A DNA stretch of 64,000 nucleotides from a phage. The notes beneath the pieces were generated by a model. The model saw only the letters and a program-made list of their open reading frames with translations, did no database searches and was not told where the DNA came from. A program made the translations under genes and the position numbers. The stretch lies in the sequence record PZ445451.1; one strand, 5' to 3'. Shown here piece after piece: positions 38,415 through 50,819 of this stretch; position 1 is the stretch's first letter; each line of letters begins with the position of its first letter.

Positions 38415-39362
38415 TTAGAAACAGTGCAGGAAGTTTCGACCATACTGCAAACCAATAGGAGCAAATGGGATATCATCATCGAAATCTTGAACAACAGGTT
38501 CTGGTTCTTTCGGTGCTGGCTCTTTCTTCTCTACTTTTTTAGTTTCTTTCTTAACTTCTTGTACTGGGATAGACATTCCACGGATAGCAGCAGCTACTTT
38601 ATCAGACAAAGCAAGAACTTCACGAGCAGCTTCAATAATCTCTTCTGCCGTTACAGTTTTACCTGTATGATCACGACAAGCGTTAAGAATTGCGTGTCCA
38701 ACTGAAGCACCAAGATCATAGTCAGTTACATCAACGCCACGATCTTTAGCAATTTCAGCTTTCAGAGTAACAGTTGCAGATTGTACCACACCAGCCAAGT
38801 CGAAAGCATCACCTTTCACACCAGCACGTAGAAGCTCCAGAGCGCCGTTTACAGCGTGTCCTGTTTCAATCCCTACGGTATCACGTTTTTTGTAGTTAGG
38901 CTTGCTACCGTCATTATTAGAGGGCTTATTTCCACCTTTTGAAGAGGATTGTGCTTGCTGAACACCTTCTGTTGAAAGAATAGTGATTTTACCTTTAGAG
39001 GAATTATAGTATGTTTTGCCATTCCATTCAGAAGGTTTAACATCCATAGTTAGTTCTACACCTTTTTCGATAGTAACCCATTTATCACCATCTTTAACTT
39101 GCAGGTTTTCATGTTCTGGGTGCAGTTTAACTTCACCTAAGCTAACCCAAACACCTTTATCATCAGCACCAGCACCTTTCTCTTTAATAAGCAGAGATGC
39201 TTTGTGAGTTGATTCAATTTTCTTATCTGGTTGACCTGCAACCTTAATATAAGAGACTTTCATTTCATCAAACTTATCCAGTTTGACATATTCAACGATA
39301 CCTTCAGCCCAGAATGCTTCTTTTTTAGTACGACGGTCGATTTCAGAATTAATTACTGGCAT
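38415..39362 (-). CDS. ssb: Single-stranded DNA-binding protein
   Basis: 315 aa; ends with the acidic amphipathic tail DFDDDIPF characteristic of SSBs; sits in the replication module. Confidence 0.6.
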   Translation of the reverse strand: MPVINSEIDRRTKKEAFWAEGIVEYVKLDKFDEMKVSYIKVAGQPDKKIESTHKASLLIKEKGAGADDKGVWVSLGEVKLHPEHENLQVKDGDKWVTIEKGVELTMDVKPSEWNGKTYYNSSKGKITILSTEGVQQAQSSSKGGNKPSNNDGSKPNYKKRDTVGIETGHAVNGALELLRAGVKGDAFDLAGVVQSATVTLKAEIAKDRGVDVTDYDLGASVGHAILNACRDHTGKTVTAEEIIEAAREVLALSDKVAAAIRGMSIPVQEVKKETKKVEKKEPAPKEPEPVVQDFDDDIPFAPIGLQYGRNFLHCF

Positions 39363-39378
39363 AAATTCTCCTCTATAA

Positions 39379-39777
39379 TTACATTACTTTAACACAAAAC
39401 TCTCGTAAAAGAGTAGCGTCAGTTTCTTCCAACAGGTATTTACCAAGACCAATACCAAATCCTATTTCACCACTTTCAAAATGGAGGATTTGTATCTTTT
39501 CTCCACCAAGGTTAATTACTTTTGCTTTTCCAGGATTATCCAAAACATCTCGTATTGTATCCTGTAGTAACATAAGCTCACGTTTTGTGATAGTGGTTTC
39601 AGATATCTCTTTGTTTTCTACTCTCACTGTTAAACGATTGTATCCACCAAAGAGACATAGTATTTGAATAAAAAAGGTATTATCTTGAGGTTCAACATCT
39701 TTTTTAGTTAGTTCAAGACGATTAGTTTCTCTACTGTAGAACGTCTCGACTAAGATTTTAGAACGATTATCTGTCAT
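39379..39777 (-). CDS. Hypothetical protein
   Basis: 132 aa ORF on the replication-module strand. Confidence 0.4.
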   Translation of the reverse strand: MTDNRSKILVETFYSRETNRLELTKKDVEPQDNTFFIQILCLFGGYNRLTVRVENKEISETTITKRELMLLQDTIRDVLDNPGKAKVINLGGEKIQILHFESGEIGFGIGLGKYLLEETDATLLREFCVKVM

Positions 39778-39820
39778 TCAAGTCCTCATAATAACACATA
39801 ATTGTAAGGTTTGTCAACAC

Positions 39821-40435
39821 TTAAATCTTAAATTCTTCGTTGTTAAGTGAATCCAGTGTACGTACTTCTGGTTCTTTGGGGATGAAAACGTCTTTTACAA
39901 AGCGGAACATAGGGAAACGTTCTGCCATTTTACGGACGTGTGCTTCTTTACCTGTGTAGCGGTGATTAATAGTACAAATATTAGTTTTCAGCGCAAATTC
40001 AAAATCTGGATGATATACATAATTTTGACCATCCCAGTAACACAGGCAAATAGCTACGTCAAAGTTCCATACGATTTCACTGCGTACACCTTCTTCCATG
40101 ATCATAAAGTTAAACTTAAGATCTTTATAGTATGCTTCAAATACCCATTTCAAATGTGGTAGTTCGGCATAAGTGTGTTCTGTTTGCTTAGTAAGTTGTT
40201 TAACATTACGTGCACCAACACCCAACATCAAAAATTTCTCTACTAGTACGAGTGTATTGTGGTTAGGCATACGCAAGTAAATATCAATATCTTGCGCAGG
40301 TTTCTCTAATCGCCAATCACGTACAGCGCCGCCAGCTACAATTGCAAACGGATCTACCAGTTGGCACATACGTAATACTTCTAAAGCTCGTACTTTTTGA
40401 TCTTCAATATTCATATTTTCTCCTATCGTTTCCAC
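39821..40435 (-). CDS. Minimal nucleotidyltransferase related to the CCA-adding enzyme / poly(A) polymerase head domain
   Basis: 204 aa; motif FAIVAGGAVRDW...DIDIYL matches the pol-beta-type NTase signature of CCA-adding enzymes (GGaVRD...DhDh); far shorter than full-length CCA enzymes. Confidence 0.55.
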   Translation of the reverse strand: METIGENMNIEDQKVRALEVLRMCQLVDPFAIVAGGAVRDWRLEKPAQDIDIYLRMPNHNTLVLVEKFLMLGVGARNVKQLTKQTEHTYAELPHLKWVFEAYYKDLKFNFMIMEEGVRSEIVWNFDVAICLCYWDGQNYVYHPDFEFALKTNICTINHRYTGKEAHVRKMAERFPMFRFVKDVFIPKEPEVRTLDSLNNEEFKI

Positions 40436-41010
40436 TCTTTGTGTTGTTCTACATGCTCAAGCATTTCATTATATAGTGCTTTAAGATGTGGAACAACTCT
40501 TTCATCTTCAGTTTCAAAGAATTTTGTAAGCTGCTCTGCTTTAGCTTTCAACCAGCAAAGATGCGCTTCAATTTCAGTATTAAAACGTCCCAGCGTTTTT
40601 ATGCGACTGTCTACTTTTATATTGGCTTTGTATTTATTACGATCTTTTTCGTAACTACATCCCACCATAGTCCCATGAGATCTTTTACTTACTCTATAAG
40701 CTAAGAACTTATTAAGATCTCCTGTTACTAAAAGACAGGTATTGGGAGAGTAAACTCTCCCTCCTATAATATCTTTATCAAGTTCTAAGTTTTCCCAGTC
40801 ATCCCAAGTTTGCAACCAGGAATAGAAATTGGAGAACAACTTCCATTCTTCACAAACTGTCACCCCATTATAACAAGGATCACGTTCTTGTTGACAAGGG
40901 GAGTAACACCTCCCCAACATAGACATCCATTTCATATAAGCAGGGTGCATAGTTCCTCTAGGAGATCTTACAGTAAAATCTCCATCAAAAATACCATGAC
41001 CATATACCAT
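40423..41010 (-). CDS. Putative homing endonuclease with AP2-like DNA-binding domain
   Basis: 195 aa; AP2-like block (KYKANIKVDSRIKTLGRFNTEIEAHLCWLKAKAE); Cys/Trp-rich N-terminal region; free-standing gene directly downstream of the polymerase. Confidence 0.4.
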   Translation of the reverse strand: MVYGHGIFDGDFTVRSPRGTMHPAYMKWMSMLGRCYSPCQQERDPCYNGVTVCEEWKLFSNFYSWLQTWDDWENLELDKDIIGGRVYSPNTCLLVTGDLNKFLAYRVSKRSHGTMVGCSYEKDRNKYKANIKVDSRIKTLGRFNTEIEAHLCWLKAKAEQLTKFFETEDERVVPHLKALYNEMLEHVEQHKEWKR

Positions 41011-41039: not shown

Positions 41040-44000
41040 CTAATGACAACTGGCCCATGAGTTACCAACATCGTACCCAGCAGTGAGAGGTACATTAAGA
41101 TTGTAATACTCACCAGCTTTATTAACAGCGATAGATGCTAATTCTCCAGCACGACTGTAGGCTGTAAACCAACCACCTTTCGGAGATTCATGTACGTTCG
41201 CCCAAATCTTGCCAGTACGTTTCTCTTCCTCTTCTTTCCAGGCATTAACTTTATCCAAACATTCTTTATCAATTTTCTTTTGTTCTTCTGGATCATCAAC
41301 TTGAGTCCAACCTAAAGATTCTTTAGAGAACCATTTAAAATGCACCAGATCACGAGTTACTTCAAGTTGTGCTTCATCGTGATATGCAATCATTTGTTGA
41401 ACGAATGACTTATTTTTCCAGTCATCAACAAAAAAGTCAACAGCTAATCCTTCTTCTTCGATAAGATCGTCGTAGATAACCATTGCTCTTTTTGCACAAA
41501 TAACACCACCACTCTGGAACAGAGAGTTAAGTATTGCGTGTGCAGATCGTGTAGGTACTTTTCTACCATCAATACCGAGAATGTATTTCTTACCTGTTTT
41601 AACCCAAAAGTCATGCAGACGTTCTTTAAGAAGCGCAAGAGGTTTTGCAGCTTCCCAGAAAGCATCGTATACAAGCTGTCCTGTATACATATCACTACCT
41701 ATAGTTTTTGCTACTTTTGCAGCTTGAGCACCATAAGTAATACCATACTTAACAGATTTAGCAGGGCTTCGTTCAAACTTACGACCAATAGTGTCAGAAA
41801 TACGTCGAGCCATCATTGTATGAACATCATTAGGTTTTTCCAATAATAGAGCATTACAATATTCGTGTGGTTCCTGCTCGTACCGCCAACAATTCCCTGT
41901 AATCGTGATGCAGTCTTTCTGACGCATAACCCATGTACCGAGTTCTGTTTGTGGACACCAAACATCTTCTACACCCCATTCTTCAATAGTCAGACTTTGA
42001 ACAGGGATGTGAGAGCGGTTAGCCAACGTTGCCACTTTTACTTTCTGGTCTTTCGTATTGAAGGCTACAGAAATATTACCCCCATGAACCAGGTATGAGG
42101 CAGTTAAGGCTGCTTCAAAAAGTTCTCCTGGGTTCTGCGCCCAGCGCCAAACAGGTTTTTGTTTATGTTTGTGCCAGTAACCATCCGCAATCAAAAAACC
42201 TTCCAAGAAAGCCACACGCTCGGCATGAGACATATTAACTACACGTTCTACCCACGGAACATCCCATTTACCTTGTTGAACAGAAGTTAAACTATTTACT
42301 TGATCTTGTTCCATGTTAAATGGAGCATTACAAATAATGTTATCTCCTGTGCAAAGCTCGGCAGTTGTTCTGACTTTAGGCACATAAGTATTCCCTGTAC
42401 TACGAGTATTAACATACCAACGGTGATCTGCTGTTGCACGATAAGTATGGGATTTTCCTTTAATCTCAAACGTCTTACTATTTTTATAGAAGACCTTACC
42501 TTTTACTTTAGTCCATTCTTTAAGTCCTGTTTCTGGGTTATATCCTAAGATTTCATCCCCTTCTTGTAGATCGTGATAACCAACCCAACCTTTACGGGTT
42601 AGTGCTTGTGCATCCATAGGTACACAGTAGTGTGATTCTATTTTTGCCTCAAGAGAATCAAAGTCATAACCAATTTGGAAGTATTTTGGAACTTCTACAC
42701 CAAATAAGTTACGCATTTCATATCCGTACAGAGATGTTACACGTGGGATATTTGCTACTAACCTATGTTTCATACGAGATGTAGCTGCATCACACGTTGC
42801 AGCAGGAGTTGGTATACGACCATCAGCCCTTACTGCTGCCAGATAACCTTTATCGTAATCCTCTTCATCTTCTTCCCAATCAGCACCACCACCTAGAATA
42901 GAGTTCCTACGGTGTTTATACGTAAGATACTGCACAATCTGCGTAGCATAAGGAAACTTTTCACCCAGTGCTTCCAAGTTAGGACAAATATCTTTCTCTT
43001 GCCCTTTTGTAAAGGAAGGGTTCGTAAGCACTTTAACACCACGACCTTTAGCTTTAGCAATACGATCTCTTAGTTTCCATTCCAAAGTTTCTGGTGTGCA
43101 CTCCAGATGATCACATCTGTCCTGGCAGAAGTTAGATGCTAACGTTTGATCAACATAGTCACGAATAGCTTTCTCCATTTGTGCTTCATCTTTCTTAATC
43201 TTAGTGCCAGATTTAAGAGTGATATCTTTATCTTTGTATTCAGATGGACTCCAACCTAAACCAACTAACCAGTTTTTAATATGTGTAGTGTCGTCTAAAG
43301 TAGCAGGTACTGTAGGATCACAAATAGGTTCTTCTGCTGGAATAGGGAGTTTAAACTCTTTACCTAAAGCAAATAACCACCAACCATCTTCTTTTTGTAC
43401 AAGTTCACCAGAATGTTTCTCTGCAAACTTTATCATGTTACTTGAAGGTTCACCATTCTTTTTAAACTGTAGTTTAGGTGGAATGAATGATTTCAAATAA
43501 CCTTTGGTAGCAGGTTTAGGAGGTAGCACAGGTTCTGCCTCTAAACGACATGCTTCCATTCGAGCATCCAGATCACGAATATTATCTTCTGCTTGTTTCA
43601 TATTGAAAGCAAAGCCACGGTGCTCTTGACGTGTAATAATATCAGCTACACGTTGTTCTAAGTTAAATGGTTCAGACCACTTATTATAATCACCCCACTC
43701 TTCCATCAAATAACGGAACACTGCGGTGTTAGCTTTGTTATCGTAAATACAGTAATACAGCATATCTGCTGCAAATGTTTTAAATCTTTCAGTTTCAGGG
43801 ATGTTTTTTCTAAAATCAATTTTAACATCCCCTCCAGCTTTCTTAGATAACTCTGCCAGACTATGACCACCGAAGCGATCAGGGTTTAGTGTCTTACTTA
43901 AGATCATAGTATCACAAATTTCAATGTTACTATTACCCCAAGTATTGTACTTAATACTGTAGTTGAGTTTAAAAAATAATTTAATTGCCAGTAAGTCGAA

Positions 44001-44354
44001 GTTAATGATGTTGTGTCCAACTACTTTGGTAATTTTATAGTTTGAATTACCTTTAAATTTACCTGTTCCATTTACAAAATCAGGAAAATCTTTAAGAGGG
44101 AAATGGGTATATTCTAAATGCTCATATTCCTCCAATCGGTATTCATACTTTCCGTCAGTCTCAATATACGGACGACCATCGAAAAGATATTTATCACCAT
44201 CATGGAAAGCAATAATCTCTCCAGTATCATGACTTTCGCACACAATACAGTGCATTGCAAAACTATCTTTTAAACGATATGGACTTGCCAAGTAATCTAC
44301 ACTTTCGTCATTAAGCAAGTTGTTACTTTCAATGTCGAAAGTAAAAGCTCCCAT
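41040..44354 (-). CDS. DNA polymerase, family A (3'-5' exonuclease + polymerase), intein-containing
   Basis: Exo I FDIES and Exo II HNIINFD motifs; motif A DFDSLEAKIESHY interrupted right after HY; motif B-like KSVKYGITYG; motif C-like YHDE; strong AAGGAGGG RBS. Confidence 0.8.
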   Translation of the reverse strand: MGAFTFDIESNNLLNDESVDYLASPYRLKDSFAMHCIVCESHDTGEIIAFHDGDKYLFDGRPYIETDGKYEYRLEEYEHLEYTHFPLKDFPDFVNGTGKFKGNSNYKITKVVGHNIINFDLLAIKLFFKLNYSIKYNTWGNSNIEICDTMILSKTLNPDRFGGHSLAELSKKAGGDVKIDFRKNIPETERFKTFAADMLYYCIYDNKANTAVFRYLMEEWGDYNKWSEPFNLEQRVADIITRQEHRGFAFNMKQAEDNIRDLDARMEACRLEAEPVLPPKPATKGYLKSFIPPKLQFKKNGEPSSNMIKFAEKHSGELVQKEDGWWLFALGKEFKLPIPAEEPICDPTVPATLDDTTHIKNWLVGLGWSPSEYKDKDITLKSGTKIKKDEAQMEKAIRDYVDQTLASNFCQDRCDHLECTPETLEWKLRDRIAKAKGRGVKVLTNPSFTKGQEKDICPNLEALGEKFPYATQIVQYLTYKHRRNSILGGGADWEEDEEDYDKGYLAAVRADGRIPTPAATCDAATSRMKHRLVANIPRVTSLYGYEMRNLFGVEVPKYFQIGYDFDSLEAKIESHYCVPMDAQALTRKGWVGYHDLQEGDEILGYNPETGLKEWTKVKGKVFYKNSKTFEIKGKSHTYRATADHRWYVNTRSTGNTYVPKVRTTAELCTGDNIICNAPFNMEQDQVNSLTSVQQGKWDVPWVERVVNMSHAERVAFLEGFLIADGYWHKHKQKPVWRWAQNPGELFEAALTASYLVHGGNISVAFNTKDQKVKVATLANRSHIPVQSLTIEEWGVEDVWCPQTELGTWVMRQKDCITITGNCWRYEQEPHEYCNALLLEKPNDVHTMMARRISDTIGRKFERSPAKSVKYGITYGAQAAKVAKTIGSDMYTGQLVYDAFWEAAKPLALLKERLHDFWVKTGKKYILGIDGRKVPTRSAHAILNSLFQSGGVICAKRAMVIYDDLIEEEGLAVDFFVDDWKNKSFVQQMIAYHDEAQLEVTRDLVHFKWFSKESLGWTQVDDPEEQKKIDKECLDKVNAWKEEEEKRTGKIWANVHESPKGGWFTAYSRAGELASIAVNKAGEYYNLNVPLTAGYDVGNSWASCH
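41892..42626 (-). mobile_element. Intein (about 245 aa) with LAGLIDADG homing-endonuclease motif in the polymerase motif A region
   Basis: Starts with Cys after ...IESHY (CVPMDAQALTRKGW); block B TADHRWYV; LAGLIDADG-like VAFLEGFLIADGYW (about 42180-42209); ends ...ITITGN followed by Cys; extein resumes CWRYEQEPHEY...DVHT, aligning with family A sequence after motif A. Confidence 0.7.
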
Positions 44355-46905: not shown

Positions 46906-47849
46906 TATAAATCCTCGATAAGCAGTCTGCGGGTTTCATTTAAATCATCAATATTGTAGTTATCTCTTACATACTTAGCAAGAGCCAATCCTTTCTCAAT
47001 ACAAACATCAGGAGATTCGATTAAGTATTCTACAATATCTTTCCACTCTTTAACTGAATCAGCAAAGAAGATTAGATCTTTAAATTCTTCAGTATAATAG
47101 TTCTCTCGTGGCGAACAAACGAGTGGCAAACCTTTAGCACCAGCTTCAAGAATTTTTAAATTACTTTTGGCATTATTAAAATGATTATTTACTAACGGAG
47201 CTATGGAGATTTGATGACCATCGTATGCTTCCATATAACACTCATAAGGACGAATACCTTCATAAACACAATCTGGTTGAATATTTTCTTTAATTTGCAA
47301 CCATTGAGCACTACTCAACTCTTCGTGATCTCTACGAAATCCACATAAAGTTAAATCTTTACCAAAATCAGGAAGAATTGCTAAATCATGTTTATGTGTT
47401 TCACTTCCCGCCCAAACCAGTGGACTTTTAGAATAACGATCTTTAGTAAGAACAAACTGTCCTTCATCAAAAGGTAATCCGTTAGGCACAATATGTACAT
47501 TATCATTGTATTGGCTTAATTCAACCTTTAATGCCGGAGTTGTTGTAGTTACAAGATCGCTTCTTTCAAGGAACCATTTTAGGTCATCTCGGATTTGATT
47601 TTCAAATAGTCCTTCAAGCATATGCCCTTCAGGAATAATTAAAGAATCATCCAGATCCATTACCAATTTAAACCCAAGTTGTTTAAGAGCCAGGAAACCT
47701 GGCTTTCCACGTGTTGGTACTCCATTGAACACAAAAATATTATGCTTAGGATTAATGGTCAGTTTGCGTTTATATGGCAAAATGATTCTATGAAAATCAC
47801 ATACACTATACTTTTCATTTCCGCGTGTGTCAAGAATAATATTAGGCAT
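46905..47849 (-). CDS. Glycosyltransferase-like protein (GT-B-like), paralog A
   Basis: 314 aa; C-terminal NNAKSNLKILEAGAKGLPLVCSP resembles the GT1/GT4 donor-binding motif; paralogous to the next gene. Confidence 0.5.
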   Translation of the reverse strand: MPNIILDTRGNEKYSVCDFHRIILPYKRKLTINPKHNIFVFNGVPTRGKPGFLALKQLGFKLVMDLDDSLIIPEGHMLEGLFENQIRDDLKWFLERSDLVTTTTPALKVELSQYNDNVHIVPNGLPFDEGQFVLTKDRYSKSPLVWAGSETHKHDLAILPDFGKDLTLCGFRRDHEELSSAQWLQIKENIQPDCVYEGIRPYECYMEAYDGHQISIAPLVNNHFNNAKSNLKILEAGAKGLPLVCSPRENYYTEEFKDLIFFADSVKEWKDIVEYLIESPDVCIEKGLALAKYVRDNYNIDDLNETRRLLIEDL

Positions 47850-47860
47850 ATAACTCCTTG

Positions 47861-48835
47861 TTAAAGACTTTCAATAACTTGACGACGCAGTTCATTGGCA
47901 TCTGCAAGATTATAATTAAGACGAACGTGTTCTGCAAGCATCATACCACGATCTTCTGTGTATCTAGGGTTCCTCATTAGCTTGACAACTTCATAATGCC
48001 AAGATGCTTTAGAGTCTGCATAGATAACAGCCTTTGCATCTACCGGATTGAAGTACGGCAGCACAGGAGAACAGATAATAGGAAGACCCTTTGCACCTGC
48101 TTCCAAAATCTTCAAATTGCTTTTACAGTTGTTGAAGTCATTATCTACCAGAGGAGCAATTGCAATACTGTGACCGTCATACACAGACATATACTCACCT
48201 AAATTTTTAATAGCTGGTTTATACTGTGCATTTGGAATTTTACGTTTTATTTTAACCCACTCCGCAGTAGTTAGATACTGACTGTTATTTCCAACAGGTG
48301 CAGAAGGATACACTTCATACCCTGCAATTGTCAATAGTGTATCATCAAATGTATTAGCTACAAGAGATAAATCAGGTTCATGGCTTGCTCCTCCAGCCCA
48401 AACAATAGGCGTGTCAGAATAACGGTCTTTTGTTAAAGTAAATTGACCTTCGTCGTAAGGCAGTGCGTTTCTAATAACGACAACATTACGATTTAAATGA
48501 CGAATTTTGTAAGCTAGGTATTCTGTTGTTACTGTAACAACATCTGCTAACTTAACCATCTCTACAATAGTTTTTGAGTGATTAGTAAATACGCCAGCCA
48601 TATAATGTTCAGGATTAAGCGAATAAAAATCATCTAAATCAACAATAATCTTAACACCTTGTGCCTTCAGGCGTTTAACTTCGTCTGATCCACGAGAATA
48701 CACTCTATTAAAAACTAAAACGTCTTTCTTAGGCTTAAACGTATTTCCCGCAAATGGCATTACAATACGATGGTAATCACAACCACTGCCTAACTTATTA
48801 TCACACTTAAGTACAGGAGTATTAGGATTTACCAT
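47861..48835 (-). CDS. Glycosyltransferase-like protein (GT-B-like), paralog B
   Basis: Shares CD(Y/F)HRI, APLV(D/N)N.FNN.KSNLKILEAGAKGLP and other blocks with paralog A; start set at the internal Met (MVNPNTPVLKCD) that aligns with the paralog and avoids overlap. Confidence 0.5.
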   Translation of the reverse strand: MVNPNTPVLKCDNKLGSGCDYHRIVMPFAGNTFKPKKDVLVFNRVYSRGSDEVKRLKAQGVKIIVDLDDFYSLNPEHYMAGVFTNHSKTIVEMVKLADVVTVTTEYLAYKIRHLNRNVVVIRNALPYDEGQFTLTKDRYSDTPIVWAGGASHEPDLSLVANTFDDTLLTIAGYEVYPSAPVGNNSQYLTTAEWVKIKRKIPNAQYKPAIKNLGEYMSVYDGHSIAIAPLVDNDFNNCKSNLKILEAGAKGLPIICSPVLPYFNPVDAKAVIYADSKASWHYEVVKLMRNPRYTEDRGMMLAEHVRLNYNLADANELRRQVIESL

Positions 48836-49508
48836 ATTTTTGAGCCTCCTCATAAGAGATAAAAGTTTTACCATTGCGAAGATCCTCCAGTGATTGTTTA
48901 TATTGTTCCCAGTTTACACCAATCCCCTGTTCTTTCTCTTCTTTTGACAGATTCGCAAAAGGTAAAGGATTATCTCCAAACACATCGTCAGGATGGATAA
49001 ACGCCATAATTCGAATAGGACATGGTACACCGAGAATGCCTCGGTTCAAACCTGCCAGTGGAACGCGCTGAATCCACTCTGCATCTTCATATCCATAACC
49101 GTGGGTGTATGAGCGGAAATAGCCAGCTTTCTCAATAACTGCACGGGAATACATACCAAACTGGCACATACCTAGTTCCCAAATAACCACCTCCCCTTCA
49201 ATACCTTTTACTTTATCTTTAAAGTATTCAGGCATACCAAAGAAATCCCAACCATTTTCCTTTGCCTGTTTTACAAAATATGTTTCCCACCCTGGAACAA
49301 CAGGGTAGCAATCATCATCAAAAATAAACCAGTAGTCATACCCTTCATCATAAAACTTTTTCATCAGTTCATTACGGGCATATGCAACACCTTTTCGTTC
49401 ACGATCATACTGTACAACAAAAGTAGCATTAGGATCAGTCACAAGATAATCTTTAAGAGGACGCTTACCTACAGTAATAACACCAACACCAATTTTTGTA
49501 TTTTCCAA
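48822..49508 (-). CDS. Glycosyltransferase family 2-like protein (GT-A fold)
   Basis: 228 aa; DxD motif in FIFDDDCYP; YGYEDAEW block typical of GT2 enzymes. Confidence 0.5.
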   Translation of the reverse strand: MENTKIGVGVITVGKRPLKDYLVTDPNATFVVQYDRERKGVAYARNELMKKFYDEGYDYWFIFDDDCYPVVPGWETYFVKQAKENGWDFFGMPEYFKDKVKGIEGEVVIWELGMCQFGMYSRAVIEKAGYFRSYTHGYGYEDAEWIQRVPLAGLNRGILGVPCPIRIMAFIHPDDVFGDNPLPFANLSKEEKEQGIGVNWEQYKQSLEDLRNGKTFISYEEAQKYGKS

Positions 49509-49517
49509 AATAACTCC

Positions 49518-50081
49518 TTAAATAATTTTATTCATGTCTTGACAATGTAAAAGGTGTGAAACAGCTTTTCTAGGATCATCATTACCTAAACGGTAGGTGT
49601 GAAATAAATATAACCCACGTAATAAACCTAGCCTTTTGTTGTTAGCATGTAATGCTTTAGAGAAAATTATATCAAACTGTATTGACCTTTCCTCAAAAGG
49701 GATTTCATTCCACAGACTCTTACGAAAGAGAAGAAAGAATCCTGCTAAGATAGCATCTGTAGGTACTTCCTCTATTGAGTTTCCCCATTCTAGATGTGCT
49801 CTTTTTGCAATCTCAATGTGGTGTAATATATTCGGATCTTCACTTCTTTCATTATTAAATAATTGATATGTTGATCCCAATCTGTTACAAGATGCACCAA
49901 GAACATCAAAATCAGGATTTGAACGGACAATTGATTCCAGCCAAGCAGGTTGTTCTGGAAGAAGAAACATTGTATCAATGTCTCTTAGGCAAATCCAACT
50001 ATCTTCTGGTAAGACACTTATTGTGTCATTGATACCTTTTCCAATATCTCCAGAAAGATAGGGAGTTATGTGAAATATCAT
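49518..50081 (-). CDS. Hypothetical protein, possibly GT-A-like
   Basis: 187 aa; ICLRDIDTMF DxD-like motif; adjacent to three glycosyltransferase-like genes. Confidence 0.35.
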   Translation of the reverse strand: MIFHITPYLSGDIGKGINDTISVLPEDSWICLRDIDTMFLLPEQPAWLESIVRSNPDFDVLGASCNRLGSTYQLFNNERSEDPNILHHIEIAKRAHLEWGNSIEEVPTDAILAGFFLLFRKSLWNEIPFEERSIQFDIIFSKALHANNKRLGLLRGLYLFHTYRLGNDDPRKAVSHLLHCQDMNKII

Positions 50082-50138
50082 ACTCCCTCCGTATTATTAC
50101 TTTAGCATTTTTAGACTAAAAAGTCAAAATGGTTTTAC

Positions 50139-50333
50139 CTATTGATTACGTTTTGCGAGTTCCATTTGGATAGCTAAACTGTGATCTCGTGCTTCCATAT
50201 ACTCTTTATATGTTTCATTAAGATGATCACGACAAACATCACGCAGTTTAATCAGTTTATCTGTAGGGATACCACTAAGATCATCCCAAGATTTTACAAC
50301 TTCACCAGTATCATTGATCCCAATGGTTTTCAT
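50139..50333 (-). CDS. Hypothetical small protein
   Basis: 64 aa ORF in the - strand gene array. Confidence 0.3.
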   Translation of the reverse strand: MKTIGINDTGEVVKSWDDLSGIPTDKLIKLRDVCRDHLNETYKEYMEARDHSLAIQMELAKRNQ

Positions 50334-50589
50334 CTACAACCTCCTTAATTGCTACAGCACAGTTTTTGCAGATACACTGCCCTTTACCTTTAGAAATCTG
50401 GATGTAAGGTTCATTTTCATTTTCGCCCTTACGTGAGTCATATATTACAGAATTGAAGCACACAACGCAAATATTTTTTAAGATTGTATACTTATCAACT
50501 TTCTTTTTTGTTTTAAAGTTAACTTCAATAACATCAGCCATCAGTGTAACACTCCCAGTATATTGCTTTGTGACATAACCATAGAACAT
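50311..50589 (-). CDS. Hypothetical Zn-ribbon protein
   Basis: 92 aa with CVVC...CICKNC cysteine pairs. Confidence 0.35.
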   Translation of the reverse strand: MFYGYVTKQYTGSVTLMADVIEVNFKTKKKVDKYTILKNICVVCFNSVIYDSRKGENENEPYIQISKGKGQCICKNCAVAIKEVVDENHWDQ

Positions 50590-50819
50590 TCAACATTATC
50601 GTGACTACGTGAAAAACGTTCCCAAACATCTTCATCGACTCGTAAAGCTATACAAGGATAGACGTTATCATTGATCATTTCAATTGAATAAACATCCACA
50701 TTGTCTTCGTCTTCGATGAACATCATTGCAAACTGTTCTAAATGTTTCCTAATGTAATGTACATCCTCTTCTGTAAGACCAATAACAAGATAACTTGCAA
50801 CGATAACGCCATCTTTCAT
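50541..50819 (-). CDS. Hypothetical protein
   Basis: 92 aa ORF; 5' region overlaps the upstream gene. Confidence 0.3.
   Translation of the reverse strand: MKDGVIVASYLVIGLTEEDVHYIRKHLEQFAMMFIEDEDNVDVYSIEMINDNVYPCIALRVDEDVWERFSRSHDNVECSMVMSQSNILGVLH

Follow-up and report, generated by a model that had tools for sequence, protein, structure and literature searches.

The Gad2 protein of Bacillus phage SPbetaL7 is 400 amino acids (aa) long, and its deletion makes the phage sensitive to Gabija, while a homologue from a Brevibacillus laterosporus prophage is sufficient on its own to abolish Gabija defence (10.1101/2023.05.01.538930). AlphaFold predicted a nucleotidyltransferase (NTase) domain in Gad2, and the SPbetaL7 gene is toxic on expression (10.1101/2023.05.01.538930). 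Gabija itself reportedly reacts to inhibition of RecBCD and to DNA ends (PMC12904381). What, then, might a small protein with a related domain be doing in the replication module of a virulent coliphage? The stretch of phage DNA analyzed here (sequence record PZ445451.1, 64,000 nucleotides (nt), hereafter the window) is 100% identical to Escherichia phage PaulScherrer (BASEL Bas60, MZ501100.1; window position = record position - 675), a phi92-like member of the genus Justusliebigvirus. It encodes a stand-alone NTase of 197 aa, which we refer to as the NTase, and which is a short, single-domain subfamily member of an already catalogued family (RefSeq "nucleotidyltransferase", PHROG 1614, Pfam Gad2). 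The protein is very probably an active NTase of the Gad2 family that is not a CCA-adding enzyme.

The relationship to Gad2 is seen with several kinds of comparison. Using hhalign, the profile built from the family of phi92 gp158, the orthologue of the NTase, aligned with the verified B. laterosporus Gad2 (sequence taken from the supplement of 10.1101/2023.05.01.538930) at 92% probability, E 6.7e-7, over 113 columns, and with a profile of 35 Gad2 sequences at 95.1%, E 3.2e-8, residues 22-152 of the query being aligned to Gad2 residues 25-142. A hidden Markov model (HMM) made from the 35 Gad2 N-terminal domains had the NTase open reading frame (ORF), at 22.2 bits, as its single match among the ORFs of the window; in the opposite direction, an HMM made from the NTase family matched 31 of the 35 Gad2 proteins, and E. 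coli Cca was matched by neither. Although Gad2 is placed in PHROG 18122 and the NTase in PHROG 1614, cross-matches run in both directions, the NTase also matching PHROG 4400 and Gad2 matching PHROGs 4400 and 1614. PF26128, the Pfam family named Gad2, is the precomputed assignment of the 90% cluster that holds the NTase (P0001) and of most of its relatives, and all relatives of the verified Gad2 carry the same precomputed family. AlphaFold2 models of the NTase and of a Gad2 homologue have an identical order of secondary structure elements up to about residue 135, and the two proteins have in common AGG...DxD(Y/F) and an (F)D(F/V)(T/A)(V/I)C segment. Beyond this shared part, the Gad2 model continues through poorly predicted helices (residues 147-245) into a confidently predicted β-rich domain (250-376); Gad2, at about 400 aa, consists of more than the NTase domain, whereas the 197-aa protein consists of that domain only. 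Members of either family are almost never found outside phages and prophages. Taken on these profile matches, the relationship is real but remote, and Gad2 is the closest characterized relative of the NTase. The initial annotation of this gene had offered tRNA repair, RNA tagging, and the making of nucleotide signals or anti-signals as possible functions. Because the NTase belongs to PF26128, the anti-signal or anti-defence option gains support, and tRNA repair does not.

The NTase ORF encodes a real protein and is not a chance ORF, since it matches PHROG 1614 ("nucleotidyltransferase") with an E value of 4.6e-34, has homologues in 992 HMMER clusters, and gives an AlphaFold2 model with a mean pLDDT of 91.6. 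A word-indexed homologue search retrieved just two proteins; the family became visible when 1.84 billion representatives were searched exhaustively with HMMER, giving the 992 clusters (E<=1e-3; 278 at E<=1e-10), almost all of them stand-alone proteins of 175-230 aa that cover query residues ~3-175. In an alignment of 95 family members (22-53% identical to the query; median length 193 aa), G28, G29, A30, R32, D33, W34, D42, D44, and Y82 are invariant, and 90% or more of the sequences share Q6, A10, L14, D21, P22, A27, F118, F138, Y153, K162, and F167. The AlphaFold2 model derived from the family alignment has a pTM of 0.85, and residues 43-48 form a strand in it. The hallmarks of the Pol-beta superfamily are present: an hG[GS] loop followed on the next strand by [DE]h[DE]h, within an alpha-beta-alpha-beta-alpha-beta core. 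A Pol-beta-type stand-alone NTase had been proposed from the GGAVRD and DIDIY sequences alone; both are found in the translation by regular expression, DIDIY nine residues after GGAVRD, and the proposal is borne out by the confidently predicted NTase fold and by a carboxylate dyad that is invariant in 95 of 95 members. When the model was compared with the Protein Data Bank (PDB) using Foldseek, the top 46 matches were all class II CCA-, CC-, or A-adding enzymes or poly(A) polymerases (PAPs), the matched proteins being 344-517 aa long and their target TM-scores just 0.23-0.33. In the model the NTase keeps the class II (CCA/PAP-like) head fold with an intact two-metal DxD site. From the fold, the two-metal site, and the invariant residues we infer that the NTase is catalytically active, and E93, K162, and R166 are putative equivalents of class II residues.

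How far does the resemblance to CCA-adding enzymes extend? Motif A, with its preceding helix, aligns with the GGAVRD...DVD of solved CCA enzymes and has the class II form, GGxVRD...DxD. To this extent the original view that the signature is of the CCA/PAP type was right, and the absence of body and tail domains was also correctly recognized: neck, body, and tail, which bind tRNA or RNA, are missing from a protein of 197 aa, compared with 370-420 aa in solved class II enzymes. The rest of the class II signature is not there. Motif B (RRD) occurs in none of the 95 family members, the query included, its position reading WNFDVAIC in the query and xFPLSIC in the family consensus; motif D (EDxxR) is not in the query, and the five members that contain an EDxxR have it at non-equivalent places. 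The score against PF01743 is 19.1 bits, under the gathering cut-off of 23, and the NCBIfam CCA equivalogs are missed by far (NF009814, 15 bits versus 290; TIGR03671, 14 bits versus 281). Searches of PDB sequences with the single sequence and with the family profile gave non-significant matches only, confined to motif A; with the profile, E values were 0.04-0.1 and the aligned part was the helix-GGAxRD-DxD alone. With hhalign, the family profile met E. coli Cca at 5.6% probability over 20 columns. Judged by its sequence, in which the likeness to CCA/PAP enzymes stops at motif A, the NTase is not a CCA-adding enzyme, because only that motif is shared, the family cut-offs are missed, the phage tRNA genes already encode CCA, and a homologue is found in a tRNA-free phage (see below). 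The label "tRNA nucleotidyl transferase/poly(A) polymerase" given to members of this family in some GenBank records is unjustified.

The 204-aa ORF first reported at 39821..40435 exists exactly as described, on the minus strand, which had not been given, and with a GTG start. A better candidate for the start is the ATG whose triplet occupies 40412..40414, 7 codons (21 nt) downstream of the GTG. The product of 197 aa is preferred because the GTG has no Shine-Dalgarno sequence in front of it and overlaps the upstream HNH endonuclease gene, the ATG is preceded by AGGAG, the ATG and its ribosome-binding site coincide with the RefSeq annotation of the 99.5% identical phi92 gp158 ("nucleotidyltransferase", 197 aa), and the N-termini of distant homologues agree with the ATG position. 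The Shine-Dalgarno sequence overlaps the TAG stop codon (40423-40425) of the HNH gene. Reading of the sequence thus makes it most likely that the true product is the 197-aa protein and that the GTG is probably not a real start. Positions of the features are collected in the table.

Table. Features of the NTase locus, in window coordinates.
Feature	Position	Strand	Remarks
NTase coding sequence	39821..40414	-	197 aa, ATG start preferred; PHROG 1614, Pfam PF26128 (Gad2)
Motif A, second half, D42-I-D44-I-Y46	40277..40291	-	catalytic carboxylate dyad, strand beta2
Motif A, first half, G28-G29-A30-V31-R32-D33, then invariant W34	40316..40333	-	translation, regular expression; glycine-rich loop and helix N-terminus
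Shine-Dalgarno sequence AGGAG	40420..40424	-	5-nt spacer to the ATG at 40414; sequence read directly
Alternative GTG start	40433..40435	-	MZ501100.1 bas60_0042, 204 aa, labelled "hypothetical protein"
HNH homing endonuclease, free-standing	40423..41010	-	PHROG 953, E 7e-75; between DNA polymerase and NTase
Family A DNA polymerase with intein	41040..44354	-	ORF and record annotation; upstream of NTase, same orientation
Sigma-70-like promoter match, TTGACA-18-TATTAT with TG	39788..39817	-	consensus scan 11/12, best of the 8-kb region
gp157-like gene	39379..39777	-	downstream of NTase; PHROG match
315-aa gene	38415..39362	-	PHROG 4477; annotated SSB in related phage ESCO32

By tblastn, the NTase family is present in 196 phage records. 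Its carriers include every Justusliebigvirus and Phapecoctavirus phage matched, one Klebsiella phage, many vibriophages including ICP1, and Aeromonas phages. Longer members of 284-400 aa have N-terminal extensions without any Pfam domain, which match only the uncharacterized PHROG 17589. No nucleic-acid-binding extension is recognizable in the query, and its isoelectric point (pI) of 6.3, like the family median of 6.5, is near neutral and not basic. In ICP1 isolates (Vibrio phage ICP1_2006_A, L006 3959..4541) the homologue covers query residues ~3-126 only and is annotated as two short overlapping ORFs of 139 and 60 aa, or, in the ICP1 reference, as the 137-aa ORF223. The ICP1 homologue may be truncated or frameshifted. 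It is found near genes for DNA ligase, PRPP synthetase, and NadV.

Adjacency to replication genes, as initially stated, is confirmed: only the HNH gene separates the NTase gene from that of the DNA polymerase. The order on the minus strand of PaulScherrer is primase/helicase, a small ORF, the intein-containing DNA polymerase, HNH endonuclease, NTase, the gp157-like protein, the 315-aa protein, and a Dam-like methylase. The HNH insertion is lacking in phi92, where merely 137 nt lie between gp158 and gp159, and a Phapecoctavirus (phage anhysbys) keeps the order polymerase, NTase, gp157-like gene, and next gene. In the Zobellviridae vibriophage 405E50-1 the NTase is likewise found with replication genes. 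To see how general this is, we surveyed 80 IMG/VR loci, whose NTases form 45 groups at 60% identity, clustering the neighboring ORFs in a 6-kb range. The commonest neighbor was a T7 gp4-like primase-helicase (Toprim_2 and DnaB_C; 56 of 80 loci, 28 NTase groups), followed by a family A DNA polymerase (DNA_pol_A; 45 loci, 25 groups) and, in third place, an HNH endonuclease (21 loci, 12 groups); a FEN-type 5'-3' exonuclease (14 loci, 10 groups) and a second exonuclease/polymerase type (9 loci, 8 groups) came after these. Two metagenomic contigs repeat an arrangement of ThyX, primase-helicase, and PolA near the NTase, and in one of the two a gene for a T7 gp5.9-like RecBCD inhibitor is located 1.4 kb from it. 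Adjacency to replication genes is a property of the whole family. No conserved small partner gene of an antitoxin or adaptor kind was found beside the NTase in the 80 loci; two frequent small "clusters" (5 and 12) were rejected as partner genes, being antisense ORFs inside the NTase gene itself.

Downstream of the NTase, a promoter match lies in the 43-nt gap after its stop codon, ahead of the gp157-like gene. Because this match directly follows the stop, the NTase gene probably ends a transcription unit, as far as consensus scanning can tell; promoter-like matches in the 8-kb region are not more numerous than in shuffles, and the match at 39788..39817 is a lead only. The two genes that follow (38415..39777) match PHROGs 16560 and 4477. 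The 315-aa protein contains an internal DFDDDIPF followed by 15 further residues (APIGLQYGRNFLHCF). The same octapeptide forms the C-terminal tip of the SSB of E. coli, and that tip recruits host replication and repair proteins. The polymerase intein is annotated in the record (41889..42623, minus strand), and the UvrD/Rep helicase of the same genome, encoded outside the window, also bears an intein. Four glycosyltransferase genes on the minus strand (window about 46.9-50.1 kb, record 47580..50756) are directly downstream of the primase/helicase, within the block of replication genes, and a dTDP-rhamnose synthesis operon is present in the PaulScherrer genome (L003 7033..9467).

Small NTases have been encountered in other phages. 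Among 46 Autographiviridae phages of Pectobacterium, 37 carry a small "tRNA nucleotidyltransferase", labelled without experiments (PMC7693777), Klebsiella phage fHe-Kpn01 Gp22 bears the same kind of label and is toxic in E. coli (PMC7291057), and in Gordonclarkvirinae small NTase genes, labelled likewise, are found together with replication genes (PMC11990801). Like the NTase, the Autographiviridae proteins (PP47 gp28, PP2) and fHe-Kpn01 Gp22 are stand-alone proteins of ~170-190 aa with a class II-like head, encoded among DNA-metabolism genes. Their carriers are phages without tRNA genes, which T7-like phages are not known to have. In the BFVD database many small phage NTases are structurally similar to our model at 11-21% identity, the PP2 match having an E value of 4e-8 and a TM-score of 0.60. 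The Autographiviridae NTases and Gp22 nevertheless represent a different sequence family: several are named PF01743 "Poly A polymerase head domain" in BFVD, and presumably most of them reach the PF01743 cut-off that the PaulScherrer NTase misses. A bacterial counterpart is Streptococcus pneumoniae NP_344798.1 (PDB 2la3), a stand-alone CCA-adding enzyme head domain that is 9% identical to the NTase; PDB sequence and profile searches detected no sequence relationship between them.

In the light of its relationship to Gad2 and its genomic setting, how might the NTase act? Transfer of a nucleoside monophosphate is to be expected because the class II head fold and the two-metal DxD site are kept. 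The nucleotide would come from an NTP or dNTP and the acceptor would be a hydroxyl group other than the tRNA CCA end, perhaps at a nucleic-acid 3' end, on a defence protein, or on a nucleotide. The determinants of tRNA and C-C-A specificity, which are the ribose- and base-reading motifs and the tRNA-binding domains, have been lost. The NTase, which T7-type phage replication modules carry as a fixed accessory, could counter a host system triggered by phage DNA replication or by DNA ends, nucleotidylating its target rather than binding a defence complex stoichiometrically; Gabija is the sole defence against which a family member is shown to work. By analogy with Gad2, then, the NTase would be an anti-defence factor. 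The explanation taken as a whole, an active single-domain Gad2-family NTase serving as an enzymatic counter-measure to a replication- or DNA-end-sensing host system, is the one that we favor, at a little under an even chance of being correct. A counter-defence role of the Gad2 type, considered by itself, we put forward more tentatively still.

Several points weigh against this explanation. The C-terminal part of Gad2 (~250 residues) is missing, so its two-part architecture is not reproduced in the NTase, and identity to the verified Gad2 is remote, 18-24% over ~114 columns and 22 bits by HMM. Where the NTase family has an invariant AGGAPRDW, Gad2 has AGG(T/A)ITSLF, PRDW being replaced by ITSLF. 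At the position of E93 (strand 88-96), the candidate third carboxylate, 61 of the 95 members have an acidic residue (E or D) and 27 have N or Q. The PF26128 match is a precomputed assignment. Gad2 belongs to a dedicated anti-Gabija locus in temperate Firmicute phages (those of Bacillus), whereas the NTase belongs to the replication module of virulent phages of Gram-negative bacteria, and linkage to that module may reflect the shared ancestry of a large clade with T7-type replisomes and not function. A February 2026 review lists the mechanism of Gad2 as unknown (PMC12904381), so that "works like Gad2" specifies no chemistry. A search of the literature for Gabija tests with Bas60 or phi92-like phages found nothing usable.

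Could the NTase instead be a truncated CCA- or A-adding enzyme, a minimal protein that mends the 3' ends of phage or host tRNAs whose CCA has been damaged, for instance by a defence nuclease? The structural matches, the class II form of motif A, and the GenBank names of some homologues would agree with this, and the phage encodes 15 tRNAs, polynucleotide kinase, RNA ligase, and small tRNA-synthetase-like proteins; one distant homologue is also encoded 2.7 kb from RtcB. The initial annotation had remarked that no tRNA genes are visible, which is true of the window, where ARAGORN detected none, and misleading for the genome, where it detected 15 in a cluster near the right end, outside the window and ~100 kb from the NTase gene (L003 33587..36301, about 146.6-149.3 kb of MZ501100.1). 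The record annotates 14 of them, the other being tRNA-Met(CAU) at L003 33587-33662. Two observations speak against a maturation role: the 3' CCA is encoded in all 15 phage tRNA genes, which makes de novo CCA synthesis unnecessary for them, and Vibrio phage 405E50-1 (Zobellviridae, 46.9 kb) carries a family member (32% identity, E 7e-19) and no tRNA gene in record positions 107-46858, that is, in all except the first 106 nt. E. coli tRNA genes likewise encode CCA, and the host has its own cca. A tRNA gene was found within 6 kb of the NTase in just 9 of the 80 metagenomic viral loci, and the Pnk/Rnl repair genes are ~100 kb from the NTase in PaulScherrer. Without motifs B and D, without body and tail domains to hold the tRNA elbow, and far from the Pfam and NCBIfam thresholds, a tRNA-repair role has little support, and we regard it as distinctly improbable. 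The PaulScherrer tRNA set includes Thr(UGU), Gly(UCC), Met(CAU), and Pro(UGG), which are four of the five reported preferred targets of the P2 OLD tRNase (bioRxiv 10.64898/2026.07.10.737580). The idea that OLD-family tRNases create a need for 3'-end repair was rejected, as OLD is reported to cut within the anticodon stem-loop, damage that is beyond repair by an NTase.

A replication-linked terminal transferase with no defence role would extend DNA 3' ends, RNA primers, or replication intermediates of the T7-type replisome without a template, perhaps for the processing of ends or primers in the ordinary course of phage DNA metabolism. Such an activity would account for the persistence with which primase-helicase, PolA, and FEN genes accompany 45 divergent NTase groups and for the position of the gene between those of the DNA polymerase and the SSB-annotated protein. 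The class II RRD motif is held to read the ribose 2'-OH, and its loss would fit the use of dNTPs. Small NTase genes accompany replication genes in Pectobacterium T7-like phages (PMC7693777) and Gordonclarkvirinae (PMC11990801) as well. However, the NTase gene is accessory, because T7 and most other phages that have this type of replisome are without it (PMC7693777); the near-neutral pI and the lack of a recognizable nucleic-acid-binding extension do not suit an enzyme of nucleic-acid ends, and the closest characterized relative shows an anti-defence phenotype. We therefore consider a terminal transferase rather unlikely. Also unlikely, and somewhat more so, is that the NTase is an ancient accessory subunit of T7-type replisomes that edits the 3' ends of replication intermediates, genome termini, or primers and thereby hides them from end-sensing defences, of which Gabija is an example. 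Could the product be a nucleotide "anti-signal", an oligonucleotide, cyclic or linear, that acts as a competitor of an immune messenger of the host? Stand-alone phage NTases with such activity exist: the MNT-like NTases (Bacillus phage BCP1, coliphage Av05) make competitor cyclic dinucleotides as counter-defence, producing 3'3'-cGAMP and blunting TIR-STING (10.1101/2022.06.09.495361). A near-neutral pI and the absence of nucleic-acid-binding domains would be compatible with small-molecule substrates. The MNT-like motif, GS-x-AY[GAN]T-x4-SDxD with a downstream NP-x-h2[DE] (10.1101/2022.06.09.495361), is nevertheless missing from the NTase, and a regular-expression search of the six-frame PaulScherrer genome found no such motifs; on this absence the competitor cyclic dinucleotide type of Ho et al. 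was rejected. Nor does the NTase appear to be a CD-NTase (CBASS cyclase), there being no defence-model match and the CD-NTase fold not being the best match. An anti-signal maker is accordingly a very improbable identity for this protein. Equally improbable is a host-takeover toxin that, in the manner of MenT/AbiEii, would nucleotidylate host tRNA or other RNA for an early shutdown of translation or RNA metabolism: the phage depends on the translation machinery of its host and supplies tRNAs itself, the gene is among middle/replication genes and not early host-takeover genes, and, unlike the antitoxin-paired MenT/AbiEii toxins of the DUF1814 family, the NTase has neither a DUF1814/MenT sequence signal nor a conserved partner gene.

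What is new here is the explicit rejection of the CCA-enzyme label for this NTase family, the demonstration of a Gad2 relationship for phi92-, rV5-, and ICP1-type proteins, and the linkage to T7-type replisome genes put in numbers. Few anti-defence proteins are believed to work enzymatically, and Gad2 is one of them; a single-domain relative of 197 aa in tractable coliphages (phi92, BASEL Bas60-62, Phapecoctavirus) and in Vibrio phage ICP1 offers a simpler protein with which to find the substrate, and the testable prediction that Gabija or another replication- or end-sensing system is the target. Linkage to primase-helicase and PolA genes suggests where the target may lie. If the NTase were an accessory of the replisome that hides 3' ends from defences, its 197 aa would represent the smallest catalytic unit from which the mechanism of Gad2 could be learned, and the recurrence of small CCA-head-like NTases beside DNA polymerase genes in unrelated phage groups would be explained.

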